Shown: positions 36-43,293 of the stretch, piece by piece
Layout: the number at the start of each line of letters is the position of its first letter
How positions within the stretch are numbered: the first letter of the stretch is position 1
Made by a program: the position numbers and the translations under genes
Assembly (NCBI RefSeq): GCF_053078305.1
Contig: NZ_CP166879.1
DNA: 64,000 bases
Strand: one strand, 5' to 3'
Notes under the pieces: model-generated
The model's input: only the letters and a program-made list of their open reading frames with translations
Told to the model about the DNA's origin: nothing
Databases searched by the model: none

Positions 36-2171
36 TTGCTTAATCCGATCGTTCGTAAATTCCAGTACGGCCAACACACCGTGACTCTGGAAACCGGCAT
101 GATGGCTCGTCAGGCTACTGCCGCTGTTATGGTTAGCATGGATGACACCGCGGTATTTGTTACCGTTGTTGGCCAGAAAAAAGCCAAACCAGGTCAGGAC
201 TTCTTCCCACTGACCGTTAACTATCAGGAGCGTACCTACGCTGCTGGTCGTATCCCGGGTAGCTTCTTCCGTCGTGAAGGTCGTCCAAGCGAAGGCGAAA
301 CCCTGATCGCGCGTCTGATTGACCGCCCGATTCGCCCGCTGTTCCCGGAAGGCTTCGTCAACGAAGTTCAGGTTATCGCCACCGTGGTTTCTGTTAACCC
401 GCAGGTTAACCCGGATATCGTCGCGATGATTGGTGCTTCCGCGGCACTGTCTCTGTCTGGTATTCCGTTCAATGGTCCGATTGGTGCTGCCCGCGTAGGT
501 TACATCAATGACCAGTACGTACTGAACCCGACTCAGGACGAGCTGAAAGAGAGCAAACTGGATCTGGTTGTTGCCGGTACTGAAGCTGCCGTGCTGATGG
601 TTGAATCTGAAGCTGAACTGCTGAGCGAAGACCAAATGCTGGGCGCAGTGGTGTTCGGTCATGAACAACAGCAGGTTGTTATTCAGAACATCAATGAACT
701 GGTGAAAGAAGCCGGTAAACCGCGTTGGGATTGGCAGCCGGAGCCGGTAAACGAAGCGCTGAACGCGCGCGTTGCTGCACTGGCTGAAGCTCGTCTGAGT
801 GATGCTTACCGCATCACCGACAAACAAGAGCGTTATGCGCAGGTTGATGTCATCAAATCTGAAACCATCGCAACGCTGCTTGCTGAAGACGAAACCCTGG
901 ACGAAAACGAACTGGGTGAAATTCTGCACGCGATCGAGAAAAACGTTGTTCGTAGCCGCGTACTGGCAGGCGAACCGCGTATCGACGGTCGTGAAAAAGA
1001 TATGATCCGTGGTCTGGATGTGCGTACTGGCGTGCTGCCGCGTACTCACGGTTCTGCGCTGTTCACCCGTGGTGAAACGCAGGCGCTGGTTACCGCAACG
1101 CTGGGTACCGCTCGTGACGCACAGGTTCTTGATGAACTGATGGGCGAACGTACCGATACCTTCCTGTTCCACTACAACTTCCCTCCGTACTCCGTAGGCG
1201 AAACCGGCATGGTCGGTTCTCCGAAGCGTCGTGAAATTGGTCACGGTCGTCTGGCGAAGCGCGGCGTGCTGGCAGTAATGCCGGATATGGACAAATTCCC
1301 GTACACCGTACGTGTAGTGTCTGAAATCACCGAATCCAACGGTTCTTCTTCTATGGCTTCCGTGTGCGGTGCGTCTCTGGCACTGATGGACGCAGGTGTG
1401 CCAATCAAAGCTGCCGTTGCGGGTATCGCAATGGGTCTGGTGAAAGAAGGCGACAACTACGTTGTACTGTCTGACATTTTGGGCGACGAAGATCACCTGG
1501 GCGATATGGACTTCAAAGTTGCGGGTTCCCGCGACGGTATCTCTGCATTGCAGATGGATATCAAAATTGAAGGTATCACCAAAGAGATCATGCAGGTTGC
1601 GCTGAACCAGGCTAAAGGTGCGCGTCTGCATATCCTGGGCGTAATGGAACAGGCGATCAACGCGCCGCGTGGCGATATCTCTGAGTTCGCACCGCGTATC
1701 CATACCATCAAGATCAACCCGGACAAGATCAAAGATGTTATCGGTAAAGGCGGCTCTGTTATCCGTGCCCTGACCGAAGAAACCGGCACCACCATCGAAA
1801 TCGAAGATGACGGTACTGTGAAGATCGCAGCGACCGACGGCGAGAAAGCGAAACACGCTATTCGTCGTATCGAAGAGATCACTGCAGAAATCGAAGTGGG
1901 CCGCGTCTACACTGGTAAAGTGACCCGTATCGTTGACTTCGGCGCATTTGTTGCCATCGGCGGCGGTAAAGAAGGTCTGGTACACATCTCTCAAATCGCT
2001 GACAAACGCGTTGAGAAAGTGACCGATTACCTGCAGATGGGTCAGGAAGTACCGGTGAAAGTTCTGGAAGTTGATCGCCAGGGCCGTATCCGTCTGAGCA
2101 TTAAAGAAGCGACTGAGCAGTCTCAACCTGCTGCAGCACCGGAAGCTCCGGCTGCTGAACAGGGCGAGTAA
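36..2171 (+). CDS. pnp: polynucleotide phosphorylase (PNPase), 711 aa, TTG start
   Basis: Full-length ORF; translation shows RNase PH-like domains plus C-terminal KH/S1 region; TTG initiation codon at 36 as known for pnp. Confidence 0.96.
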
Positions 2172-2183
2172 GGTTGCCATTTG

Positions 2184-2208
2184 CCCTCCGCTGCGGCGGG
2201 GGGCTTTT
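2184..2208 (+). terminator. intrinsic terminator downstream of pnp
   Basis: GC-rich 8-bp stem (ccctccgc / gcgggggg) with 4-nt loop followed by CTTTT. Confidence 0.6.
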
Positions 2209-2279
2209 AACCGGGCAGGACGCCTTGTTAGCAACCGGGAACAGGACGTTCATTCAACCGTGGTCTTCGGGAGTGGGAA

Positions 2280-3164
2280 ATGAAGCCTTTTTTGCGCTGG
2301 TGTTTCGTTGCGACAGCACTTACGCTTGCAGGATGCAGTAATACTTCCTGGCGTAAAAGTGAAGTCCTCGCGGTACCATTGCAACCGACTTTACAGCAGG
2401 AAGTGATTCTGGCACGTATGGAACAAATCCTTGCCAGTCGGGCTTTAACCGATGACGAACGCGCACAGCTTTTATATGAGCGCGGAGTGTTGTATGATAG
2501 TCTCGGTCTGAGGGCATTAGCGCGTAACGATTTTTCGCAAGCGCTGGCAATCCGACCGGATATGCCTGAAGTATTCAATTACTTAGGCATATATTTAACG
2601 CAGGCAGGCAATTTTGATGCTGCCTATGAAGCGTTTGATTCTGTACTTGAGCTTGATCCAACTTACAACTACGCGCACTTGAATCGCGGGATCGCATTAT
2701 ATTACGGCGGTCGTGACAAGTTAGCGCAAGATGATCTGCTGGCGTTTTATCAAGACGATCCCAATGATCCTTTCCGTAGTCTGTGGCTTTATCTCGCCGA
2801 GCAGAAGCTCGATGAGAAGCAGGCTAAAGAAGTGTTGAAACAGCACTTCGAAAAATCGGATAAGGAACAGTGGGGATGGAACATTGTCGAGTTCTACCTG
2901 GGCAACATTAGCGAACAAACGTTAATGGAAAGGCTCAAGGCGGACGCAACGGATAACACCTCGCTCGCTGAGCATCTCAGTGAAACCAACTTCTATTTAG
3001 GTAAGTACTACCTAAGTCTGGGGGATTTGGACAGCGCCACGGCACTGTTCAAACTGGCGGTTGCCAACAACGTTCATAACTTTGTTGAGCACCGATACGC
3101 ATTGTTGGAATTATCGCTCCTGGGCCAGGACCAAGATGACCTGGCAGAATCGGACCAGCAATAG
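2280..3164 (+). CDS. nlpI: lipoprotein NlpI (TPR repeat), 294 aa
   Basis: ORF with lipobox LAGC near N-terminus and TPR-like repeats; synteny after pnp. Confidence 0.93.
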
Positions 3165-3343
3165 CTGACGTACACATCAGCCCGTAATCTTTTTTGATTG
3201 CCATCACCTTAACGGGTGAGGGCGTTGTTGTTCGTTAATACACCTACTTTGAGCCGGTTCACACTTTTCAATGAAAATTGCTGATCAATTTCATGATGAG
3301 TTATGTAGACTGGCCGCCATTAATTTTGAGGCACACGTACTAC

Positions 3344-5233
3344 ATGGCTGAATTCGAAACCACTTTTGCAGATCTGGGCCTGAAGGCTCCTATCCTTGAA
3401 GCCCTTAACGATCTGGGTTACGAAAAACCATCTCCAATTCAGGCAGAGTGTATTCCACATCTGCTGAATGGCCGCGACGTTCTGGGTATGGCCCAGACGG
3501 GGAGCGGAAAAACTGCAGCATTCTCTTTACCTCTGCTGCAGAATCTTGATCCTGAGCTGAAAGCACCACAGATTCTGGTGCTGGCACCGACCCGCGAACT
3601 GGCGGTACAGGTTGCTGAAGCAATGACGGATTTCTCTAAACACATGCGCGGCGTAAACGTGGTTGCTCTGTACGGCGGCCAGCGTTATGACGTGCAATTA
3701 CGCGCCCTGCGTCAGGGGCCGCAGATCGTTGTCGGTACTCCGGGCCGTCTGCTGGACCACCTGAAACGTGGCACTCTGGACCTCTCTAAACTGAGCGGTC
3801 TGGTTCTGGATGAAGCTGACGAAATGCTGCGCATGGGCTTCATCGAAGACGTTGAAACCATTATGGCGCAGATCCCGGAAGGTCATCAGACCGCTCTGTT
3901 CTCTGCAACCATGCCGGAAGCGATTCGTCGCATTACCCGCCGCTTTATGAAAGAGCCGCAGGAAGTGCGCATTCAGTCCAGCGTGACTACCCGTCCTGAC
4001 ATCAGCCAGAGCTACTGGACTGTCTGGGGTATGCGTAAAAACGAAGCACTGGTACGTTTCCTGGAAGCGGAAGATTTTGATGCGGCGATTATCTTCGTTC
4101 GTACCAAAAATGCGACTCTGGAAGTGGCTGAAGCTCTTGAGCGTAACGGCTACAACAGCGCCGCGCTGAACGGTGACATGAACCAGGCGCTGCGTGAGCA
4201 GACACTGGAACGCCTGAAAGATGGTCGTCTGGACATCCTGATTGCGACCGACGTTGCAGCCCGTGGCCTGGACGTTGAGCGTATCAGCCTGGTGGTTAAC
4301 TACGATATCCCGATGGATTCTGAGTCTTACGTTCACCGTATCGGTCGTACCGGTCGTGCGGGTCGTGCTGGCCGCGCGCTGTTGTTCGTTGAGAACCGCG
4401 AGCGTCGTCTGCTGCGCAACATTGAACGTACTATGAAGCTGACTATTCCGGAAGTAGAACTGCCGAACGCAGAACTGCTGGGCAAACGCCGTCTGGAAAA
4501 ATTCGCCGCTAAAGTACAGCAGCAGCTGGAAAGCAGCGATCTGGATCAATACCGCGCACTGCTGAGCAAAATTCAGCCGACTGCAGAAGGTGAAGAGCTG
4601 GATCTCGAAACTCTGGCCGCCGCACTGCTGAAAATGGCACAGGGTGAACGTACTCTGATTGTTCCGCCTGATGCGCCGATGCGTCCGAAACGTGAATTCC
4701 GTGACCGTGATGACCGTGGTCCGCGCGATCGTAACGACCGTGGCCCGCGTGGCGACCGTGAAGATCGTCCGCGTCGTGAACGTCGTGATGTTGGTGACAT
4801 GCAGCTGTACCGCATTGAAGTGGGCCGCGATGATGGTGTTGAAGTTCGTCATATCGTTGGTGCGATTGCTAACGAAGGCGACATCAGCAGCCGTTACATC
4901 GGTAACATTAAGCTGTTTGCTTCTCACTCCACCATCGAACTGCCGAAAGGTATGCCGGGTGAAGTGCTGCAACACTTTACACGTACTCGCATTCTGAACA
5001 AGCCGATGAATATGCAATTACTGGGCGATGCACAGCCGCATACTGGCGGAGAGCGTCGTGGCGGTGGTCGTGGTTTCAGTGGCGAGCGTCGTGAAGGTGG
5101 TCGTAACTTCAGCGGTGAACGCCGTGAAGGTGGTCGTGGTGATGGTCGTCGTTTTAGCGGCGAACGTCGTGAAGGCCGCGCTCCGCGTCGTGATGACTCT
5201 ACCGGTCGTCGTCGTTTTGGTGGTGATGCGTAA
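3344..5233 (+). CDS. deaD: DEAD-box RNA helicase DeaD/CsdA, 629 aa
   Basis: Motifs [20 protein letters not shown] present; start set at MAEFETTF (ATG 3344) rather than the upstream ORF-track start; Arg/Gly-rich C-terminal tail. Confidence 0.94.
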
Positions 5234-24179: not shown

Positions 24180-24935
24180 TTAGGTATTAATTAAACAAAT
24201 AAAGTTACTGTGCAGCCACAAAAACGAAGCCGGGATAGAGGTAGAGACTTTAGCCGTGAGAAAACGTTCTGTCGCATCCTGCTTTCCTTCGCCAGTCACC
24301 AGTAACAAAACCTCGCGGGCATTGAGAATATCCTTCAGGCCTAAGGTGATCCCACGAGTCACGGGGCGGCCCGCGGTTTTTAACATCTCATGTTGCTGTG
24401 TTCTGGCATCAAGTTGACTGATATGGCAGGCCGGTTGCAGGTTTTCTCCCGGTTCGTTCAGCCCAAGATGACCGTTTTTCCCCAATCCGAGAACGCATAA
24501 ATCCAGACCGCCTTTGCGCGCAATCAGGTTCGTTACCCGTTCGCACTCTGTCTCATTTATCTCTTCGGAGCGAAAGCTGATGAGCTGGTCTTCACGTAGC
24601 CCCAGCGGCTGCACGATATGCTGTTGCAGGAAAGTTTCGCAGGTGCCAGGCATCGTTAATGGCAGATCCACCCATTCGTCGAGCTTGACGATGGTCAGTT
24701 GGCTGACATCAACCTGCTGCTGGTGGATTTTTTCTACCAGATAATGATACGTCAGTAATGGCGTCGCTCCGGTCGGCAGGCAAATCACGGCATCCGGTTT
24801 ACTACGGATCACGGCCAATAAATATTCGCTGGCACGTTCACTTAACGCTGTATAGTTTTCAACTTGCTGAAGGGTTTGCACAGGATGAAATTCCTTAAGT
24901 AAAGAGGCACCGCCAGACGCAGTGCCTCGTTCCAT
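24180..24935 (-). CDS. agaI: galactosamine-6-phosphate deaminase/isomerase AgaI, 251 aa
   Basis: NagB-like sequence, recognised. Confidence 0.9.
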   Translation of the reverse strand: MERGTASGGASLLKEFHPVQTLQQVENYTALSERASEYLLAVIRSKPDAVICLPTGATPLLTYHYLVEKIHQQQVDVSQLTIVKLDEWVDLPLTMPGTCETFLQQHIVQPLGLREDQLISFRSEEINETECERVTNLIARKGGLDLCVLGLGKNGHLGLNEPGENLQPACHISQLDARTQQHEMLKTAGRPVTRGITLGLKDILNAREVLLLVTGEGKQDATERFLTAKVSTSIPASFLWLHSNFICLINT

Positions 24936-25727
24936 TTACAAAATGCCGAATGCGGAACAAACAATAGAGAGCACAAAAGTCACGCCGATTAACAGCACCG
25001 GATGCGCTTTTTTCACCCGCAGGAAGTAATACATCAGCAGGGTGTAGGCCATCGGTAAAATGTTCGGGAAGACTTTATCGAAGAAATCCTGTTGCAGCGC
25101 GACGCTGTGGGTACTGTCGATGGCAAACGATGTCACCACGTTAATATGCACATACGAAGCGATCAGCCCGCCGATTACCGTGATCCCGAGGATGGTTGCC
25201 GAGCGAGCAATCATCTGCGAGTTCTCTCGCACTTTATCGATCGCCTTCACGCCGACTGAATAACCGACGTGGGTCCAGCCGACGCGCAGGAAAAAGATAA
25301 GCAGGTAAACGGCGAAAAATAGAATCGGCCCCAGCAGGTTTCCCTGGCTGGCAAATGATGAGCAAATTCCCGCCATAATCGGCAACAAAGTAAACCAGAA
25401 AATCGCATCGCCAATCCCGGCGATTGGGCCAAACAGTGCCACTTTGAGGCCTTTAATGGTGTCGCGGTTTTCTCCTTTTTCTTCCATCGAAATTAATAAC
25501 CCCATCAGGAATCCGACCAGATTCGGGTGGGTATTAATAAATTCGAGGTTATCTTTCATCGCTGCGCTTAGGCCCGGTTTGTCATCCTTATAAATCTTTT
25601 TCAGGATCGGCAACATCGCCCAGGTAAAACCGCCCGCCTGCATCCTTTCGTAGTTAAAGCTCGCTTGCAGCAGCGACGAACGAAAGCCCAGACGGGTGAT
25701 ATCTTTTTTACTGATTTCAGATCCCAT
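24936..25727 (-). CDS. agaD: PTS galactosamine-specific EIID component AgaD, 263 aa
   Basis: Start set at MGSEISKKDITR; mannose-family IID. Confidence 0.88.
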   Translation of the reverse strand: MGSEISKKDITRLGFRSSLLQASFNYERMQAGGFTWAMLPILKKIYKDDKPGLSAAMKDNLEFINTHPNLVGFLMGLLISMEEKGENRDTIKGLKVALFGPIAGIGDAIFWFTLLPIMAGICSSFASQGNLLGPILFFAVYLLIFFLRVGWTHVGYSVGVKAIDKVRENSQMIARSATILGITVIGGLIASYVHINVVTSFAIDSTHSVALQQDFFDKVFPNILPMAYTLLMYYFLRVKKAHPVLLIGVTFVLSIVCSAFGIL

Positions 25728-26520
25728 TGCTGTAGTCCTCTTCTTCATTTTTACTGGCAACGGGCTGCGGTTGCGCTTGCTGCCGGGATTTCGCATTGAA
25801 AAACTCATACACCGCAAAGCCTGCGCCCAGTACGGCAACCGGCAACAGGTTGCTGACCTGGATGTAGCAAACAAACAGGAAGCCGGCGATCAGGTAAGGA
25901 ATATATTGTGCTTTGAACATCACGCGCAGCAGCAAGCCAAAACCAACGGCAGGCAGAATACCGCCAGCCACTTCAAAGCCGTGGGTCAGCCAGGCGGGCA
26001 TCGCTTTCACCAGCGCCTGCATCGCCCCTTGTGCCAGGTAAGTACAGAGGAAAGCAATCACCGCATACGCTGAAGCGACGATGAGCATCGTTGTCCAGTT
26101 AAGTCGGGAAAACGCTGCCGTATCCGCCTCTTTCGCGCATTTATCGGCTTTGGTCATAAATAATGAGAAAGCAGAATAGAAGAACAGAATGACGTACTGC
26201 ATTAACAAACTAAACGGCAGGCCAAGACCAATTGCCGTTTTGGCATCAACGCCCGTAGACCATGCAATGACGGTGGTCATCAGACCCGCCATAATCGGGT
26301 TGGGCGGCTGAACACCACCTGCAGGGGTTAATCCGGCGAAAGCCAACTCTGTCAGACCACCGGTAATTAAGCCAGTCTGAATATCACCGAGAATAGCGCC
26401 TGTTAGGGTACAAACGATTATCGGGCGGAATAAAAATAAGGCTTCCAGCCAAAAATCAATCCCCAGAACGAAAACTAACGCCGCCAGGGATAATCCCTGA
26501 AGTAGGGTTATTTCATGCAT
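25717..26520 (-). CDS. agaC: PTS galactosamine-specific EIIC component AgaC, 267 aa
   Basis: Mannose-family IIC, recognised. Confidence 0.9.
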   Translation of the reverse strand: MHEITLLQGLSLAALVFVLGIDFWLEALFLFRPIIVCTLTGAILGDIQTGLITGGLTELAFAGLTPAGGVQPPNPIMAGLMTTVIAWSTGVDAKTAIGLGLPFSLLMQYVILFFYSAFSLFMTKADKCAKEADTAAFSRLNWTTMLIVASAYAVIAFLCTYLAQGAMQALVKAMPAWLTHGFEVAGGILPAVGFGLLLRVMFKAQYIPYLIAGFLFVCYIQVSNLLPVAVLGAGFAVYEFFNAKSRQQAQPQPVASKNEEEDYSNGI

Positions 26521-26558
26521 TTTTATTACCTCAAACCAATATTAAGGCGATTTTAGAT

Positions 26559-27035
26559 TTAGTCAGGGATTTGTTCTTTTTGATCGCCAGGGACGTCCTG
26601 AATGAAAACATTCACGCCACGTTGTTTAATAAAACGTAAGTCCGCGAGATCCTGGTCATCGACATAAACTTTACTGCTGATTTGCTTTTTCCCTTCCGAG
26701 AAATGCATATTGCCGACGTTGACATCTTTCAGGTCAATGCCACCTTCTACCAATTTACGTACCGTTTGTGGCGTACGGCAAATCAGGAAGATCTTCTGAT
26801 GTGGTGCAGCTTTGCCGATGACGTTAATGGTTTTTTCGATAGTAAAGAAACGAATGCCAAAGCCGTAGGTTTCCGCGGTAATACCCATTAATTTCTGTTG
26901 AATATCATCGTTAGCGACAACATCATCCACGACTACCAGCAGATTTGCACCGATGGTGGATGTCCAGGTCACGCCAACCTGACCGTGAACCAGACGGTTA
27001 TCAATACGGGTTAAGAGAATATTTGGACTGCTCAT
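26559..27035 (-). CDS. agaB: PTS galactosamine-specific EIIB component AgaB, 158 aa
   Basis: Mannose-family IIB with RIDNRLVHGQV motif. Confidence 0.9.
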   Translation of the reverse strand: MSSPNILLTRIDNRLVHGQVGVTWTSTIGANLLVVVDDVVANDDIQQKLMGITAETYGFGIRFFTIEKTINVIGKAAPHQKIFLICRTPQTVRKLVEGGIDLKDVNVGNMHFSEGKKQISSKVYVDDQDLADLRFIKQRGVNVFIQDVPGDQKEQIPD

Positions 27036-27201
27036 TGTGTAATCCTCACCATAAAGTTGAATAATATAATTTTTTTAAATATATTATTGTTGCGATATTG
27101 TACTGATGTATTTATTAAGGTTTAGTCATCTCCTTTTCCATTAAGGCACTCCCCGATATTAATCGGGAAGTACATTGGGATAAATCATAAAAAACTAATG
27201 A

Positions 27202-28074
<873 letters not shown>

Positions 28075-29229
28075 TTATGCCTGCCACGGATGAATGATTA
28101 CGCCTTGCACCACGCGGTTAACGGTGCCACTGGCTGATGGGGTATCCGGCGTATTGCCCATGTGCAGCGACTGCATCAGTGCAAACGTCTGGGCGTACAT
28201 CAGGAAGCAAAATGCCTGCTCAACGTCGATAAAGTGACGTGACGGTGGCAGGATGATATGTGGACCGGCAGCGACGATGTCGCTGCTTTCCGCGGCGATG
28301 GCTATTACACGCATTGCCTGATTGTCACGGCGAAGTTCAGCCAGCAGATCAAGATCATACTGACGGGTGTAAGGGTGGCTGGAGACAAATACCACCACCA
28401 GCGTTTCGTCATCGACCAGCGATTTTGGTCCATGACGGAATCCGGTTGGAGAATCATAAAAGGCCGCCAGTTTACCCGCCGTCAGTTCCAGCACTTTCAG
28501 CGCCGACTCGCGTGCTGCGCCCTGTAAGCCACCGCTACCGAGATAAACGATCCGTTTCCACGGTGCGTAACCAAACACACCTTCGCTGAAATCGCCCAGT
28601 GAGGTCAGGATCGCCTGGCAACGATCCGCCACGTCGCGGAAGGTTTGGCTGTTGATCGTCTCAGGTGCGAAAACCGCGAGGCAGCTGGCCATCATGGTGG
28701 TAATGCTGCTGGTCATCGCAAAGCCGCGATCGTGCGTTTCTGCGGGCATCAGCAGGGCAAACGCGTTATCGCTGTTGATCGCGTTTTGGTAAAGAGCGCC
28801 CGCTTCGTTGCAGGTGATCGGCAGGTGATAGCATTCTGGTACAAATTGATTTGCCAGTTCCACGGCGGCGACGCTTTCCGGGCTGTTGCCGGATCGACCG
28901 AAGGAGATCAACAGCAGCGGATGGGCTGGGTTCAGGTAGTCCATCGGATTAGTGACCAGATCGGTGGTCGGTACGGCGCTGAAGTTTTTACCGGTATGGC
29001 TGGCGAGCCACGGCGCGATGATGTCACCGATAAATGCTGAGGTTCCGGCTCCGGTCAGGATGATCCGCAGATTCTCTTTGCGCAGTAACGGTTCAAGGAA
29101 GTTATTGAGCGCGGAACGTAGCGCGTCGATGTTGGTGAGTGAACGGATCCATGCGCGAGGCTGTTGGCGGATCTCTTCTTCAGTCCATGTACCGGTTGCG
29201 GCGGCAGCAGGGGTGTAATTTTCTGGCAT
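28075..29229 (-). CDS. agaS: putative galactosamine-6-phosphate deaminase/isomerase AgaS (SIS domains), 384 aa
   Basis: ORF recognised. Confidence 0.9.
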   Translation of the reverse strand: MPENYTPAAAATGTWTEEEIRQQPRAWIRSLTNIDALRSALNNFLEPLLRKENLRIILTGAGTSAFIGDIIAPWLASHTGKNFSAVPTTDLVTNPMDYLNPAHPLLLISFGRSGNSPESVAAVELANQFVPECYHLPITCNEAGALYQNAINSDNAFALLMPAETHDRGFAMTSSITTMMASCLAVFAPETINSQTFRDVADRCQAILTSLGDFSEGVFGYAPWKRIVYLGSGGLQGAARESALKVLELTAGKLAAFYDSPTGFRHGPKSLVDDETLVVVFVSSHPYTRQYDLDLLAELRRDNQAMRVIAIAAESSDIVAAGPHIILPPSRHFIDVEQAFCFLMYAQTFALMQSLHMGNTPDTPSASGTVNRVVQGVIIHPWQA

Positions 29230-29264
29230 AACTCAATCCTTAGTCTGATGAACTTGACGTCGGG

Positions 29265-29400
29265 CGTTGTCGCTTTCGCTTACCTTTCGTTTCATTTCAC
29301 TTGGTGATGTCTTTCGTTGATTAAAATCTATAGAAAAGAAATCGAAAGTTCAATGGAGAAAAAGGAAATAAAACGAAATCTGTGATCATTGAAAGAAAAG
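29265..29400. promoter_or_regulatory. agaS promoter region with clustered CTTTCG/CGAAAG motifs (candidate AgaR operators)
   Basis: cgctttcgcttacctttcgtttcatttcac, gtctttcgttga, atcgaaagtt, aaacgaaatc read from sequence; matches the CTTTC-rich AgaR site pattern. Confidence 0.6.
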
Positions 29401-29449
29401 ACAAGGGAAGATTAAAGAATTGCGTAATGACGTCGCTATGTTCACCGAT

Positions 29450-29505
29450 TGCCGGATGCGGCGTATCGTAGGTCGGATAAGACGCGTTAGCGTCGCATCC
29501 GACAC
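29450..29505. repeat. REP element between agaA and agaS
   Basis: gccggatgcggcgtatcgtaggtcggataagacgcgttagcgtcgcatccgaca. Confidence 0.7.
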
Positions 29506-29579
29506 CGCTGCACAGATCAAAAAGAAAGAAAAAGAAAGGCCTTACGGGGGAAGTGAAGGCCCAATAAAGGAGCAAACCA

Positions 29580-30713
29580 TCAAAACGAAGCTAATTGACC
29601 CTGAATCCAGATTTGTTGCACATGTAGCCCGCTATCCAGCGCAACGACGCTGGCGCGTTTGCCCGGTTTAAGCGATCCCAGAACACCATCAACACCCAGC
29701 ATTCGCGCCGGATGCAGCGACGCCATATGAATGGCTTCCGCAGGCGTTACGCCCGTCAACTCGACCATATTGCGCACTGCCGCATCAACAGACAGCGTAC
29801 TGCCCGCCAGCCCACCGGACGCGGTACGGACAACGCCACCGTGCATCTGCACTTCTTCACCACATAACGTATAGCGACCATCCGGCATCCCAGCTGCCTG
29901 CATCGCGTCGGTGATCAGTACGATTCTCTCTTTCGCACAGCAACAACACAGCGACATCGCCGCCGGATGCACATGATGACCATCGGCTATCAGTTCCAGC
30001 CAGGCGCGCTTGTCCGTTAATCCCGCGCCAACCATTCCCGGTTCGCGGTGATGTAAACCTGTCATCCCGTTATAGCAATGCACCAGGCCGTCGGCACCAG
30101 CATCAAACGCGGCGCGAGTTTGTTGCCAGGTCGCCGCGCTATGCCCCAGCATCACTCGTACATTTTGCTGTTTAAGATGGCGGATGGCCTGCAATGCCCC
30201 CTCTTTTTCCGGTGCCAGCGCTACCACGCGTAAGGTGTGCTGAGAAACGGCAATCAATTGATCCAGCTCGGCAATTTCAAGCTCGCGAAACAACTCCGGC
30301 GGATGCGCGCCTTTATTCTGCGGCGTGAAGTACGGTCCTTCGAGATAACTCCCCAGCACTTGCGCACCAGGTCCGCCGCGTTGGCAACGTTGAGCAATAC
30401 GTTTCAGCGCCGCATGAATGGTGTTAAGCGGCGCGGTTACGGTAGTCGGCAACCAACTGCCGACACCTTCGCGTGCCTTGTGCATTGCCAGCTTGTCGAG
30501 CACATCCGGCGCGTCATCCATTACATCAACGCCCGCACCACCGTGTACATGGGTGTCGATGTAAGCGGGGCAGAGCAGTTCCGCATCGCGTTCAGTCACG
30601 CCCACTGGAATCGGTTCGATTGCTGCGATGACACCGTCAGCAATACGCAACTGATGGTCATCGAGCCATCCCTCTTCAGTCAGCAGCCTTCTGGCGCGCA
30701 GAACGTGTGTCAT
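29580..30713 (-). CDS. agaA: N-acetylgalactosamine-6-phosphate deacetylase AgaA, 377 aa, intact
   Basis: Full-length NagA-like ORF; start set at MTHVLRARRLLTEEG. Confidence 0.87.
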   Translation of the reverse strand: MTHVLRARRLLTEEGWLDDHQLRIADGVIAAIEPIPVGVTERDAELLCPAYIDTHVHGGAGVDVMDDAPDVLDKLAMHKAREGVGSWLPTTVTAPLNTIHAALKRIAQRCQRGGPGAQVLGSYLEGPYFTPQNKGAHPPELFRELEIAELDQLIAVSQHTLRVVALAPEKEGALQAIRHLKQQNVRVMLGHSAATWQQTRAAFDAGADGLVHCYNGMTGLHHREPGMVGAGLTDKRAWLELIADGHHVHPAAMSLCCCCAKERIVLITDAMQAAGMPDGRYTLCGEEVQMHGGVVRTASGGLAGSTLSVDAAVRNMVELTGVTPAEAIHMASLHPARMLGVDGVLGSLKPGKRASVVALDSGLHVQQIWIQGQLASF

Positions 30714-31144
30714 ATCCCTTCCTCGACCGGACATTCTTCATGGCAGCGGCCTAACTCGTCCACCAGACTGGTCAGCCCACGATGTCCACACTCCAGCGCC
30801 TGTACACGGAATTCTTCACCGCTTAACCCTTCGCGCTCCAGCACCATCTCCAGTAGCAGTTGCAAATTGGTGCCGGTGATCACTTCACAGCCCGGTTTTT
30901 GCATCGCCAGCGTTGAAGCTACGCGAAACGGCGTGCCGCCCAGCAAATCCGTCAGAAAAACAATGCCGTCTTCACAATCCAGTTGGGCGATGGCCTCTTC
31001 AAGCTGCGATGTAAGCAGCGCGGTGCTTGAGGTTTCCGGAAAATCGATGGCGATAAACTGCGATTGCTCACCGAGAATTTGCTTCATTGCTTTTTCCATG
31101 CCGCTGGCAAACCCGCCATGCCCTGTCAAAATAATACTTAACAT
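30710..31144 (-). CDS. agaF: PTS EIIA component AgaF, 144 aa
   Basis: Mannose-family IIA, recognised. Confidence 0.87.
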   Translation of the reverse strand: MLSIILTGHGGFASGMEKAMKQILGEQSQFIAIDFPETSSTALLTSQLEEAIAQLDCEDGIVFLTDLLGGTPFRVASTLAMQKPGCEVITGTNLQLLLEMVLEREGLSGEEFRVQALECGHRGLTSLVDELGRCHEECPVEEGI

Positions 31145-31161
31145 CTAATACCTCATTGTAT

Positions 31162-32046
31162 TTAAAGGAAATGGCAGAATTTACCGACGATGCCGAGAAC
31201 CACGGTAACTGCAATCAGACGCAGCGGACTCCAGCCGCGGCGTACCAACCAAAACATGGTCAGGGTGTAGACCAACGGTAAGAAGGCAGGCATCAGTTTG
31301 TCGATAACATCAGCCTGTAACTTAACCACTGCGTCGCCCGCTGTGATTTCCAGCGTGGTGCTTAAACGAACATAGGTTGCCACCAGCGCACCGATTACCG
31401 TCATCCCAACGATAGACGCAGCATGGCCGACTTTTTTGGTATTCGCTTTAATGAGTGGAATCGCCGCCACGCCCATGCGGTAAGCATAATGCGCCAGACC
31501 AAAACGCAGCCCCAGGTGGACCACGTTGAACAGCACAATAAAGACGACTGCGCCAAGAATGGAGCCTTGCAATGCCAGACTGGCTCCAATCCCGCCACAA
31601 ATCGGCAGTAGCGTTAGCCAGAACATTGCATCGCCAATCCCGCCGAGCGGCGCACCGACGGCAATTTTGGTGCTCTGAATACTGTTAACGTCCTGCTTAG
31701 AACGCTCCATCGCAAGGATAATGCCGATAACAAATGTCACCAGAAACGGATGGGTATTGAAGAAACCCATATGCCCCTTCATGGCGCGCGCCAGGTCGCG
31801 TTTATTAGTGTGGATCTTTTTCAGAGCAGGCAGCAGACCGTACAACCAGCCGGAAGCCTGCATACGTTCGTAGTTAAAAGACGCTTGTAACAGCATGGAA
31901 CGCCAGGCGACGCGATTGATATCTTTTTTCGTCAGCTCCGCGCCAATGCTCTGATCTTCATACACATTTTCATTGACGCCAGTCAGCAATGTTTCTTCGT
32001 TTTCACTGACGTTCGGCAGGGTGGTTTGATTAGATGCCATCTTCAA
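31162..32046 (-). CDS. agaE: PTS N-acetylgalactosamine-specific EIID component AgaE (about 292-294 aa)
   Basis: Paralogous to agaD; exact start among the first three codons uncertain. Confidence 0.86.
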   Translation of the reverse strand: MKMASNQTTLPNVSENEETLLTGVNENVYEDQSIGAELTKKDINRVAWRSMLLQASFNYERMQASGWLYGLLPALKKIHTNKRDLARAMKGHMGFFNTHPFLVTFVIGIILAMERSKQDVNSIQSTKIAVGAPLGGIGDAMFWLTLLPICGGIGASLALQGSILGAVVFIVLFNVVHLGLRFGLAHYAYRMGVAAIPLIKANTKKVGHAASIVGMTVIGALVATYVRLSTTLEITAGDAVVKLQADVIDKLMPAFLPLVYTLTMFWLVRRGWSPLRLIAVTVVLGIVGKFCHFL

Positions 32047-32809
32047 ATTCCTCTTTCTGTGCCGCAGGTTGAGTCGGTTCAGGAGATTTACGCAGCAGAT
32101 CGATCAGCGCCATCGCCAGCGCGGCGGCAGCAATAGCCAGCACCGGTAACTTGAGCCAGGCTGCGGCAACAAAGCCCAGGATGAAGTAGGGGATGTAGAC
32201 GTTTTTCATCATGATTTTCAGCAGCACGGCAAAACCGATTGCTGGCATGATGCCGCCCGCGACGCCGAGGCCGTCGATTAATCGTTGCGGCAGGACATCA
32301 ATGATGGTTTTTGCATGTTCCGCGCCGAAGTAGATAGGCAGGAAAGCGCAGAGAAAATAGAAAGTGCCGAGTGCCAGCAGTGCCAGATAGTTTACGCGTT
32401 CAATGCCGCGAGTATCGGCGTTCTCCGCCATCCGGTCGCAGCGAGACATCACGCCAGACATCACCGAGAACAGGAAGGTAATCCCCATCTGTACTGCGAC
32501 AGCGAAAGGTACGGCGACACCGACTGCGACATCGGGTTTCACGCCAGTAGTAATGGCAAACGCCGTGCCGACGATAGTACCGATAATCACGTTAGGCGGC
32601 TGTGCGCCCGCCAGCGGGGCCAGCCCCATCCACACCAGTTCCAGCGTACCGCCGGTTAAAATACCGGTATGCAGATCGCCAAGTACCAGCCCGACTAACG
32701 GGCCGAGGACCACCGGGCGGTGCATATGGGTTAAGCCGTTAAACATATCCAGGCCAGCGATAAAGGCGATAATGCCCAACGCGAATGCCTGCAACAGACT
32801 GATTTCCAT
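32030..32809 (-). CDS. agaW: PTS N-acetylgalactosamine-specific EIIC component AgaW, 259 aa, intact
   Basis: Paralogous to agaC. Confidence 0.87.
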   Translation of the reverse strand: MEISLLQAFALGIIAFIAGLDMFNGLTHMHRPVVLGPLVGLVLGDLHTGILTGGTLELVWMGLAPLAGAQPPNVIIGTIVGTAFAITTGVKPDVAVGVAVPFAVAVQMGITFLFSVMSGVMSRCDRMAENADTRGIERVNYLALLALGTFYFLCAFLPIYFGAEHAKTIIDVLPQRLIDGLGVAGGIMPAIGFAVLLKIMMKNVYIPYFILGFVAAAWLKLPVLAIAAAALAMALIDLLRKSPEPTQPAAQKEEFEDGI

Positions 32810-32819
32810 GATGAATCCC

Positions 32820-33293
32820 TCAAAGTAATTTAAAGAGGTCCACAGCAGGCTCTGTCGGGACGCCCTGAACGAAGCATTCCACCCCAGCGGCTTTCAGGTC
32901 GTTAAATGCTGCGATATCGCCCGCATCCACAGAAACCGTTTTGGCGATTTGTTGCTTGCCATTGGCGTAGTGCATATTGCCAACGTTAATGCGATTCACC
33001 GGAACGCCACCTTTCACCAGCGTCAGGAAATCGGCGGGTGTTTTACAAACCAGCAGGATTTTCTGTCGATCGGCGGCGCGATGAATGTTGTCGATAACTT
33101 TTTGCAGCGTCCAGAAACGTACGGCGATCCCTTCTGCCAGTACCATTTCCATCAGGTTTTGTTGTACCGGATCTTCGGCAACCTCATCGTTGGCTACCAG
33201 CACCAGATTTGCCCCCGCAAATCCGACCCACTGAACGCCGACCTGACCGTGAATCAAGCGTTCATCAATCCGGCTTAAAACAATATTTGGCAT
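32820..33293 (-). CDS. agaV: PTS N-acetylgalactosamine-specific EIIB component AgaV, 157 aa
   Basis: Start set at MPNIVLSRIDERLIHGQ. Confidence 0.87.
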   Translation of the reverse strand: MPNIVLSRIDERLIHGQVGVQWVGFAGANLVLVANDEVAEDPVQQNLMEMVLAEGIAVRFWTLQKVIDNIHRAADRQKILLVCKTPADFLTLVKGGVPVNRINVGNMHYANGKQQIAKTVSVDAGDIAAFNDLKAAGVECFVQGVPTEPAVDLFKLL

Positions 33294-33315
33294 AGCGTGT
33301 TCCTCTTTGTTTTGC

Positions 33316-34596
33316 TTATTGGCCTTCACAGGCTGTGTGGTACTGCGCCAGGATGTCCTGAATATGGTTGATAATGAGTTCCCGTGGCGTTGGCTGCAGC
33401 TCGCCGGAGCGAACTTTCACGTACTGCAGCGGCAGATACTGGCTGATCAGCGGCAGCGGAATCGGTGAATCCGCCAGATTACGTACCAGATGAGCGAAAG
33501 CGTCATCAATCTGGCTGTCCGGCCAGTAATAGCGCACGCGATCCGAGTAGCTATAACCACGCGCCAGACGACGCGCGTTGCCGTCACCGTGGTAGTGGCT
33601 TTGCCAGTATTCCGGGCGGTCGAGCATCACGTTTTCCAGCACCTGACGCAGACCAGAACAGGCTTTTGCTGGCACCAGTTCTTCTTCAATCGCTGCCAGA
33701 GAGAACAGAGCTTCACGCAGGGCGAAGGTCAGCGCCGGGCCAACTTTCAGAATGGCAAAGTGGTCAATCACCAGCTGGCGCAGCGATTGCGGCGTTTGAT
33801 AATCGGTAGAGTGCGCTTCGAAAATCAGCGTTTCGTAGCTTTCGACCATCTGGCTTAAGGCGGTCGCTTTGGCGGGCTGATAATCAATAACGTTGGTGTG
33901 ATCGAATTCGACGCCGGGTTGAACCACCAGGGCAATGATGCGTGGCCAGATGGCATTCAAACCTTGCTTTTCAAAGGCGTGACGATGGGCTTCCAGCGTG
34001 GCGCGGGCGGCATCCGGCGTGGTGACCGCCAGCTCGCTTAAGGTTTCATGCGCGCCGCCAGGTACCGGCACTTCGGTACCAATGACATACTCCAGATCGG
34101 CTTCGCCAAAGTGTTCAAGACAGGTTTCTTCCGCCACTTTCGCCAGACGGGCGGCGCGTTCAGCCACGATGTCATCAGTTAAGGGAATCGGATCGTCCTG
34201 ACAGGACATGCTGCAATCAAGGTGGATTTTTTTGAATCCTGCCGCAACGTAGCTTTTAATCAAATCATCGGCATTGGCCATTGCCTGAGCGGCCGGCAGG
34301 TTTTGCCAGCGGTTCGGCCCCAGATGGTCACCACCCAGAATCAACGCATCCTGCGGGAAATTCAACGAGTCGGCGAGCTGACAAACAAAGCCGCGAAAAT
34401 CGGCGGGCGTCATTCCGGTATAACCGCCGAACTGGTCTACCTGATTGGAGGTTGCTTCAATCAGTAACGGCGTTTGGTTTGCACTGGCGTAGCGGATTGC
34501 AGCCTCCAGCACCAGCGGATGTGCGGAACAAACGGCATAAATTCCATTTGTTTTGCCCGCTTTGTGCTGTCTCACCATTTCTGTCAGATGTTTCAC
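33316..34596 (-). CDS. kbaZ: tagatose-bisphosphate aldolase non-catalytic subunit KbaZ (AgaZ), 426 aa
   Basis: ORF recognised. Confidence 0.9.
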
Positions 34597-35708: not shown

Positions 35709-36173
35709 TCAATGGTTTTCTTCTGTCTCTTGGGTGAGGGTTTCCCAGTCGGCAGGAGGATGTCCTCTTTTTAACATTTTGCTGAATACGGTATAGGCAT
35801 CTGTTTTTTTACCGTAGGTGCGAAGAGTGTTTTCATCGTTCATCCATCCCAGAATGATGACTTTCTCTTTTTCACTATAACGAAAGAAGAGACGATAACG
35901 ACCAGCCCCAAATTTTACCCATGACCAGTCTTTATTTTTCCCTGAGCCTAACGACTTGCCATGACGGAATGCCGGTGATGATGGATTGACCGTGATATGC
36001 TCCTCAATCACTTTGTGAACTGCTGCCAATAACTTTGTGGCGGCATTTCTCTAATAATTTTCAGGATCTTTTCCCTTTAATGCCTCGACTTCGGCAACTA
36101 AAGCATCGTAGGTTTCCTGAAAACAGGGATGAGCATATAGCGCCCAACCATTAACCCTTTGTGGAAAATCCAT
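35709..36173 (-). pseudogene. yhaV: yhaV toxin gene (154-codon frame) interrupted by in-frame TAG at codon 41
   Basis: ATG at 36173 overlaps the prlF stop by 1 nt; frame reads MDFPQRVNGWALYAHPCFQETYDALVAEVEALKGKDPENY then TAG (36051-36053), then continues in the same frame through the recognisable YhaV C-terminus. Confidence 0.75.
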
Positions 36174-36508
36174 TATTCGTCGTCGCCAATCTCATCATCA
36201 ATGTTGACGTCCATGCCAGCGACAAGTTTCTTTCCTTGTTGAATGTCGAATGGACGAGTTTTTTGCGGGTTGTTCTGGATATCTGCATCCAGAAAACGCA
36301 AAAATGCATTCATAGTATGATCCTCCTGTTCATCTCCCAGTCGGCACATAAATACTTGCCCACCAGGCAGAATTTCGTAATGAATGTTGTCCAGGCCTGG
36401 CTTCAGTTTTAAGGCCTCACGCACTGGCGCGGGGATAGTTGTTTGTCCGCGTATCGTGACCTTTGATTCAGTGGTCAGTACAGCGTGAGAGCGAGCATTA
36501 GCGGGCAT
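36173..36508 (-). CDS. prlF: antitoxin PrlF (SohA), 111 aa
   Basis: Start set at MPANARSHAVLTTESKV; AbrB/SpoVT-type N-terminus and acidic C-terminus. Confidence 0.88.
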   Translation of the reverse strand: MPANARSHAVLTTESKVTIRGQTTIPAPVREALKLKPGLDNIHYEILPGGQVFMCRLGDEQEDHTMNAFLRFLDADIQNNPQKTRPFDIQQGKKLVAGMDVNIDDEIGDDE

Positions 36509-36605
36509 TAGGCACTGTACTTTTACAGCCTGTTTTCTGCTCAAATTATAAGCTTCAGCAAAGTAATGCAAATGCATTATTAATGGACGTGGGGGTTTTA
36601 AACAA

Positions 36606-36634
36606 TAAAAACATGGCACTAAGGCCATGTTTTG
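36606..36634 (-). terminator. intrinsic terminator downstream of garD
   Basis: Perfect 8-bp stem aacatggc / gccatgtt with 6-nt loop flanked by A- and T-runs. Confidence 0.7.

Positions 36635-42916: not shown

Positions 42917-43293
<377 letters not shown>

Follow-up and report, generated by a model that had tools for sequence, protein, structure and literature searches.

The closest described system is the PrlF-YhaV toxin-antitoxin pair of E. coli K-12 (b3129-b3130; Schmidt et al. 2007, cited in PMC8546651), which has an intact toxin gene whose product is toxic when expressed. Published work assigns YhaV to the RelE family and describes it as a ribosome-dependent mRNA interferase (PMC8546651). 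Cases in which the toxin was lost are also on record. In K-12 chemostats, yhaV loss-of-function alleles were repeatedly selected to high frequency, among them W10G, IS insertions, and frameshifts that leave 38 residues; knocking out yhaV alone lowered fitness by about 8%, both under magnesium limitation and in LB (PMC5960147). Loss of YhaV function is tolerated. One AIEC strain has been reported to be without yhaV, and orphan higA genes have been described beside a missing or pseudogenized parE/higB (PMC7232551). In REL606 and BL21(DE3), yhaV is annotated as a pseudogene with an "internal stop" (ECB_RS15830).

Here we describe a prlF-yhaV locus in a 64,000-nucleotide stretch of DNA (the window; contig NZ_CP166879.1 of NCBI RefSeq assembly GCF_053078305.1) in which the toxin frame is interrupted by an amber codon. 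We read the locus, with a probability of about 93%, as carrying a vertically inherited and recombinationally spread null toxin allele. The allele is already known as a yhaV pseudogene annotated in RefSeq and GenBank, including the original REL606 annotation. That status rests on the database annotations; a literature search found no published description of the yhaV pseudogene allele.

Layout of the locus and effect of the stop

The prlF-yhaV operon spans exactly positions 35709 to 36508 of the window, with both genes on the minus strand. It lies between garD upstream and agaR downstream, an arrangement shared with K-12 and other E. coli. The antitoxin gene prlF (36508 to 36173, minus strand) is intact in translation, with an ATG start, 111 sense codons, and a TAA stop at 36175 to 36173. 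The yhaV pseudogene (36173 to 35709, minus strand) is a 154-codon frame with a terminal stop at 35711 to 35709. The two genes overlap by one nucleotide in a TAATG at 36173, where the final A of the prlF TAA is also the A of the yhaV ATG (GAATAATGGAT). The yhaV frame is broken at codon 41 by a TAG at 36053 to 36051 on the minus strand; the plus strand reads "cta" at 36051 to 36053. There are 113 sense codons between the TAG and the terminal stop, and the frame is unchanged. The interruption leaves an N-terminal ORF of 40 codons (36051 to 36173, minus strand) that is predicted to be translationally coupled to prlF through the TAATG, and a C-terminal remnant ORF of 106 codons (35709 to 36029, minus strand) that starts at a TTG, codon 49, and has no Shine-Dalgarno match. 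The gene layout and all coordinates given in the preliminary description were correct.

The identities of the two genes were likewise borne out. PrlF matched the NCBIfam equivalog NF007429 over residues 1 to 111 with 168 bits, against a cutoff of 125. The PrlF family has an AbrB/SpoVT-type N-terminal domain, and the AbrB-domain match here was below threshold. At 12 other loci with a TAG allele, PF15937 is recorded for the PrlF call, which in some cases is truncated by the contig end. With codon 41 taken as Gln, YhaV matched Pfam PF11663 (Toxin_YhaV) over residues 12 to 150 (E = 5e-53), a match that shows homology at the level of the sequence rather than of an expressed protein. There is no YhaV model in NCBIfam. 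By these matches and its neighbors, garD and agaR, the locus is a chromosomal type II toxin-antitoxin operon of the prlF-yhaV kind. The toxin frame is interrupted, and as judged from its sequence the locus is a remnant of a PrlF-YhaV system, not a working member.

Several features lie around the operon. A terminator-like hairpin of 10 pairs followed by a T-rich tail is found between garD and prlF (36608 to 36633, minus strand); it is identical in K-12 and is presumably the garD terminator. The gene for RNase P RNA, rnpB, lies at 42917 to 43293 on the plus strand (Rfam RF00010, 318.6 bits, full length) and is the sole Rfam match within the window. On the other side, the ORF sizes at 24180 to 34596 (minus strand) suggest a complete aga/kba N-acetylgalactosamine cluster, including ORFs that, by size only, correspond to full-length agaW, agaE, and agaA. 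K-12 presumably has a deletion within the aga/kba region.

To place codon 41 in the protein, we used an AlphaFold2 model of K-12 YhaV computed from an alignment of homologues (pLDDT 90.5, pTM 0.87). The model has strands at residues 5 to 7 and 10 to 14, helices at 16 to 35 and 44 to 60, strands at 84 to 88, 93 to 100, and 105 to 111, and helices at 126 to 135 and 143 to 153. Its best structural matches were PfiT, E. coli RelE, HigB2, and M. tuberculosis RelE, members of the RelE/HigB/ParE group, in agreement with the published family placement. A search by sequence for a solved YhaV structure returned nothing relevant. Codon 41 falls in the loop between helix 16-35 and helix 44-60. The translated 40-residue fragment comprises one hairpin, made of the first two strands, and the first helix, and it has no strand past residue 14. 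Because the stop cuts the single domain after its first helix, toxin activity is predicted to be abolished. At most, a fragment of 40 residues or fewer of this 154-residue RelE-fold ribonuclease would be made.

A partly active YhaV of about 100 to 106 residues might still be produced by a restart at TTG codon 49 or GTG codon 55, or functional YhaV might naturally start downstream of the stop, as the preliminary description had allowed. The 106-codon TTG ORF does exist; the original REL606 record lists it as a protein, and several pipelines call it, some with 100 residues instead. However, neither candidate start has a Shine-Dalgarno match, and the predicted pairing energies are -2.7 kcal/mol before TTG 49 and -1.8 kcal/mol before GTG 55. 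The product would also carry a replacement of the invariant arginine R85 (see below), and a product from codon 49 would be without strand 10-14 and helix 16-35 of the RelE-like fold. The PF11663 domain begins at residue 12, and residues W10, F18, L25, and V29 are invariant among homologues. Since the start of the domain, these invariant residues, and these fold elements all precede codon 49, a natural downstream start is ruled out, and we consider restart in any form extremely unlikely.

Distribution and origin of the amber allele

The comparison with K-12 and other E. coli that the preliminary description had proposed gave the expected answer. Codon 41 is CAG (Gln41) in K-12 MG1655 and in six further intact alleles chosen to span the range of identity, and the stop is a CAG-to-TAG transition relative to K-12. 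The codon-41 column is occupied by a residue in all 34 homologues from other taxa, with no gaps, which indicates that a sense codon is ancestral.

We then took a census by searching 5,426 complete E. coli genomes for 41-mers centered on codon 41. The TAG 41-mer of the window was found exactly in 170 genomes (about 3%), and three more matched with one mismatch. The K-12 41-mer was exact in 2,998 genomes, with another 1,962 within two mismatches. The locus itself was matched in 5,161 of the 5,426 genomes, and about 5% were without any match. Inactivation or loss of yhaV is a recurrent and ordinary polymorphism. The TAG carriers include REL606/BL21, E. coli C, ATCC 8739, and O145:H28. Many of the 170 genomes are laboratory derivatives of E. 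coli B, and others come from human, livestock, wildlife, and food isolates. We opened 11 TAG genomes that were among the best matches to the locus (KL53, REL606, O145:H28 RM12761, E. coli C, 88-3493, F8111-1SC3, 510016, B771, GF4, VL7S7, and LP5-1), and in all 11 RefSeq marks yhaV as "pseudogene, internal stop." Among the complete genomes, which do not include the window itself, the best match to it had 99.6% identity across the locus and 99.3% across 20 kb.

These counts bear on whether the TAG could be a sequencing or assembly error in a strain whose yhaV is really intact, which had been raised at the outset. The 170 complete genomes with the identical 41-mer were produced by many laboratories on many platforms. 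The window is also matched, TAG included, at 99.93 to 99.98% over 4.8 to 6.1 kb by four independent assemblies, and about 15 further differences specific to the haplotype are linked to the TAG. The exact 40-residue N-terminal product of the window, with Ala31, is present in many independent public assemblies and in 82 blocks of a public collection. We give the error reading almost no credence. From these matches, the TAG allele is inherited and common to about 3% of complete E. coli genomes, and is neither a private mutation nor a sequencing error.

To characterize the haplotype, we aligned 12 TAG alleles with 7 intact alleles picked across the identity range. K43N and V51A in the yhaV frame, together with synonymous changes in codons 50, 52, and 53, are present in 12 of 12 TAG alleles and in 0 of 7 intact ones. 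These markers form a cluster just past the stop (36021 to 36047, minus strand), with K43N at 36047 to 36045 and V51A at 36023 to 36021. The same 12-to-0 split holds for PrlF S41N, and for a cluster of four changes that lies about 50 nt upstream of prlF, one of them a 1-nt deletion. It also holds in the prlF translation-initiation region (36509 to 36522, minus strand), where a G-to-T change at 36519 makes AAGTA from the K-12 AAGGA at -14 to -10, and GCCTA replaces GAATC directly before the prlF ATG. The upstream changes are tightly clustered, with four within 9 nt and three within 4 nt, which is unusual for point mutation. Because all 12 TAG alleles share markers that none of the 7 intact alleles has, the alignment indicates a single origin of the TAG mutation on one distinctive haplotype.

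Toward the 3' end of yhaV, from about codon 77 on, TAG alleles and ordinary alleles form mosaics, a pattern that points to recombination inside the gene. The serotypes O145:H28 and O157:H7 are close relatives. O145:H28 carries the TAG haplotype, and the sampled O157:H7 has an intact, different allele. Together with the 3' mosaicism, this difference suggests recombination at the locus.

We also looked for an intact ancestor, that is, a CAG codon on the N43/A51 background. The CAG version of the window 41-mer (CAG with AAT) had no exact match in the 5,426 complete E. coli genomes, and an exact pattern scan with N at the variable base gave no hits in 100,044 species-representative genomes. No donor species for the divergent block turned up among E. 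albertii, the non-coli homologues, or the 100,044 species-representative genomes. E. albertii was rejected as the donor: S41, the residue seen in the intact alleles, is also that of its PrlF. The YhaV homologues closest to this one outside E. coli were rejected as well; they have K43 and V51.

An exact-sequence look-up did return three "full-length" YhaV proteins of 154 residues with Gln41 on the TAG-haplotype background, encoded by 12 contigs. These contigs are at most 1.2 kb long, come from Logan, ENA, and one NCBI metagenome assembly, and all have TAG at codon 41. Translation of the 12 contigs in the bacterial code did not reproduce the recorded Gln41 proteins from any of them. Evidently, gene callers applied a code in which TAG is Gln to short contigs, and this produced phantom full-length YhaV entries. 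We therefore rejected these proteins as an intact ancestor or revertant, since TAG is present in 12 of 12 contigs and they are gene-calling artefacts.

Changes beyond the stop codon

The amber codon is not the only change of consequence in the toxin gene. We aligned K-12 YhaV with 33 to 34 homologues of 49 to 81% identity, and columns W10, R85, and R92 were invariant, as were F18, L25, and V29. In the window, codon 85 is TGG (Trp) in place of CGG (Arg) (35919 to 35921, minus strand). The arginine sits in strand 84-88 of the AlphaFold2 model. R85W is present in 8 of the 12 TAG alleles and in none of the 7 intact alleles, and by the invariance of this residue it is a second change of an inactivating type in the window allele. 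With the stop and R85W combined, we predict that the window allele is non-toxic.

Other TAG alleles have further hits. R92H is found in 2 of the 12. W10* (TGG to TGA) is found in 6 of the 12, and the window allele is without it. A 41-mer for W10* was exact in 97 genomes, the BL21 family and ATCC 8739 among them, and W10* marks a sub-lineage of the TAG haplotype to which E. coli C also belongs. Replacements at the invariant columns W10, R85, and R92 occurred in TAG alleles only; the 7 intact alleles had none. In yhaV, 7 replacement or nonsense and 7 synonymous changes were private to TAG alleles, against 2 and about 7 private to intact alleles, the latter counted after rows with identical reference and alternative bases were removed by hand; the tendency is the one expected under relaxed constraint, but both samples are small, and the difference is not significant. 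The frame past the TAG is open for all 113 codons in 24 of 24 TAG alleles inspected, with no frameshift. However, divergence among TAG alleles is below 1%, so few disabling hits would be expected anyway. These observations lean toward relaxed constraint on yhaV after the stop, short of proof. The preliminary description had seen a single point change rather than decay at this locus. That view does not survive R85W, the loss of the prlF Shine-Dalgarno match in all sampled TAG alleles, and W10* in 97 genomes.

The same changes weigh on the suggestion, also made initially, that the toxin is conditional. In this scenario, full-length YhaV would be made only on readthrough of the UAG, by a supE-like suppressor or a near-cognate tRNA, and a low-dose or switchable toxin would be kept. 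The frame past the TAG is indeed open in all TAG alleles inspected, and a published survey argues that some conserved bacterial in-frame stops are read through, although yhaV is not mentioned in its main text (PMC7918605). However, a Gln-suppressed product of the window allele would still carry R85W at an arginine that is invariant in 34 homologues. Moreover, 97 of the roughly 170 carriers have the upstream TGA at W10, which is beyond rescue by an amber suppressor, and the public Gln41 proteins are the gene-calling artefacts described above. Suppressors of the supE type are a feature of laboratory K-12 strains, whose yhaV allele is CAG. Nothing at the locus marks yhaV as a suppressor-dependent gene: there is no tRNA gene in the 64-kb window and no Rfam element at the prlF-yhaV locus, and R85W lies downstream of the TAG. 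Therefore, we regard a suppressor-conditional toxin as very improbable.

The antitoxin gene has been affected in another way. The prlF frame is open in all 12 TAG alleles, and the PrlF protein is identical in 11 of them. The signals in front of the gene differ from those of K-12. The promoter predicted by a consensus scan consists of TTTGCA, a 16-nt spacer, and TATAAT at 36545 to 36572 (minus strand). The spacer is 17 nt in K-12, and the difference is the haplotype-specific 1-nt deletion, a change that is predicted to be mild. We had also considered the promoter as TTGCAT with a spacer going from 16 to 15 nt, and dropped this because the scan gives TTTGCA and 17 to 16 nt. The predicted anti-Shine-Dalgarno duplex at prlF is -1.7 kcal/mol in the window versus -7.5 kcal/mol in K-12, and from this predicted energy PrlF translation would be reduced. 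Because the predicted Shine-Dalgarno match is lost and the promoter spacer is 1 nt shorter, we infer a lower PrlF level. PrlF on the TAG haplotype is probably an orphan antitoxin or regulator present at a reduced level. The initial view that the toxin was inactivated and the antitoxin left in place thus holds for the toxin and for the prlF frame, but not for the prlF translation signal, which is altered.

Gene callers extend PrlF to 134 residues on the TAG haplotype, as in one such locus (L031, 2597 to 3001), which corresponds to 36173 to 36577 of the window (minus strand). The 1-nt deletion puts an upstream ATG, located inside the predicted promoter, in frame with prlF. The 134-residue PrlF is probably an annotation artefact, and the real start has no Shine-Dalgarno sequence. 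The PrlF-YhaV complex is said to repress its own promoter, so loss of YhaV could also change the autoregulation of prlF.

Persistence of the allele and comparison with known systems

We favor a null toxin allele that was inherited vertically and spread by recombination. The CAG-to-TAG change at codon 41 ends translation in the loop past the first helix. The mutation happened once, on a distinctive haplotype that has since reached about 3% of complete E. coli genomes. The dead yhaV would then have kept decaying, through R85W in the window and most of its relatives, W10* in 97 genomes, and R92H in others. The prlF frame would have stayed open, and with the Shine-Dalgarno match and one spacer base lost, it would now encode an orphan antitoxin or regulator at a lower level. 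With no toxin produced, the locus would have no addiction or growth-arrest function.

Why the allele persists is a separate matter. It is possible, though not probable, that losing YhaV is advantageous, so that the null allele came under positive selection and was carried from lineage to lineage by recombination rather than simply drifting, and that the changes in the prlF Shine-Dalgarno sequence and promoter are a secondary re-tuning. The repeated rise of yhaV loss in K-12 chemostats (PMC5960147) fits such selection, and prlF is open in all 12 TAG alleles. The contrast between O145:H28 with TAG and the sampled O157:H7 with an intact allele, and the mosaic 3' part of yhaV, are consistent with recombinational spread. 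However, single yhaV knockouts carried the fitness cost of about 8% in that same study, the allele has reached only about 3%, and many of its carriers are laboratory B derivatives. A stronger form would be a maintained "disarmed" module, in which YhaV loss was selected, the allele moved between phylogroups, and prlF was kept and re-tuned for a regulatory role independent of the toxin. We consider this quite unlikely.

The null allele would have little biological consequence: inactive chromosomal toxin genes are common and vary from strain to strain. Its practical consequences lie elsewhere. The B/BL21/REL606 family, E. coli C, and ATCC 8739 are predicted to be without functional YhaV. The working system would be overcounted in presence/absence surveys that use BLAST or PCR, and also where "YhaV toxin induction" is claimed from transcripts. 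For example, an RNA-seq study of REL606 persisters reads a raised yhaV transcript as induction of the YhaV toxin (bioRxiv 10.1101/2023.02.05.527212), and REL606 yhaV carries two in-frame stops, W10* and the codon 41 TAG. The phantom Gln41 entries in the databases are a further trap when intact versions of amber-stopped genes are sought.

The nearest match among known alleles is the REL606/BL21(DE3) pseudogene. Like the window allele, it lies between garD and agaR and has TAG at codon 41. Both share K43N, V51A, R85W, PrlF S41N, and the upstream changes, and REL606 differs from the window at 4 of 800 bases over prlF-yhaV. However, REL606 and its relatives have the extra TGA at W10, which the window is without. 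Three differences are private to the window: a synonymous change at D23, T31A, and a synonymous change at G89. The original REL606 annotation, ECB_02995, is the 106-codon C-terminal remnant.

The K-12 operon is the orthologous, working counterpart, with the same context and the same TAATG overlap. Between the window and K-12, 3 of the 111 PrlF residues differ. K-12 has an intact toxin, with Gln41 and Arg85, whereas in the window the toxin frame is broken and the invariant arginine is replaced. The prlF Shine-Dalgarno sequence and the promoter spacer also differ between the two.

The K-12 chemostat alleles resemble the window allele in their early truncation, to 38 residues there and 40 in the window, and in leaving prlF in place (PMC5960147). 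W10 was hit both in the chemostats, as W10G, and in the natural TAG relatives, as W10*. However, hundreds of generations were enough for the chemostat alleles to appear, and they are frameshift deletions, IS insertions, or missense changes, whereas the window allele appears to be an old natural nonsense polymorphism. The orphan higA loci offer a parallel from another toxin-antitoxin family (PMC7232551). As in the window, an intact antitoxin frame stands beside a dead or absent toxin, and the state varies among strains. In contrast to those loci, the toxin remnant in the window is still full length, and the antitoxin translation signal has been altered.
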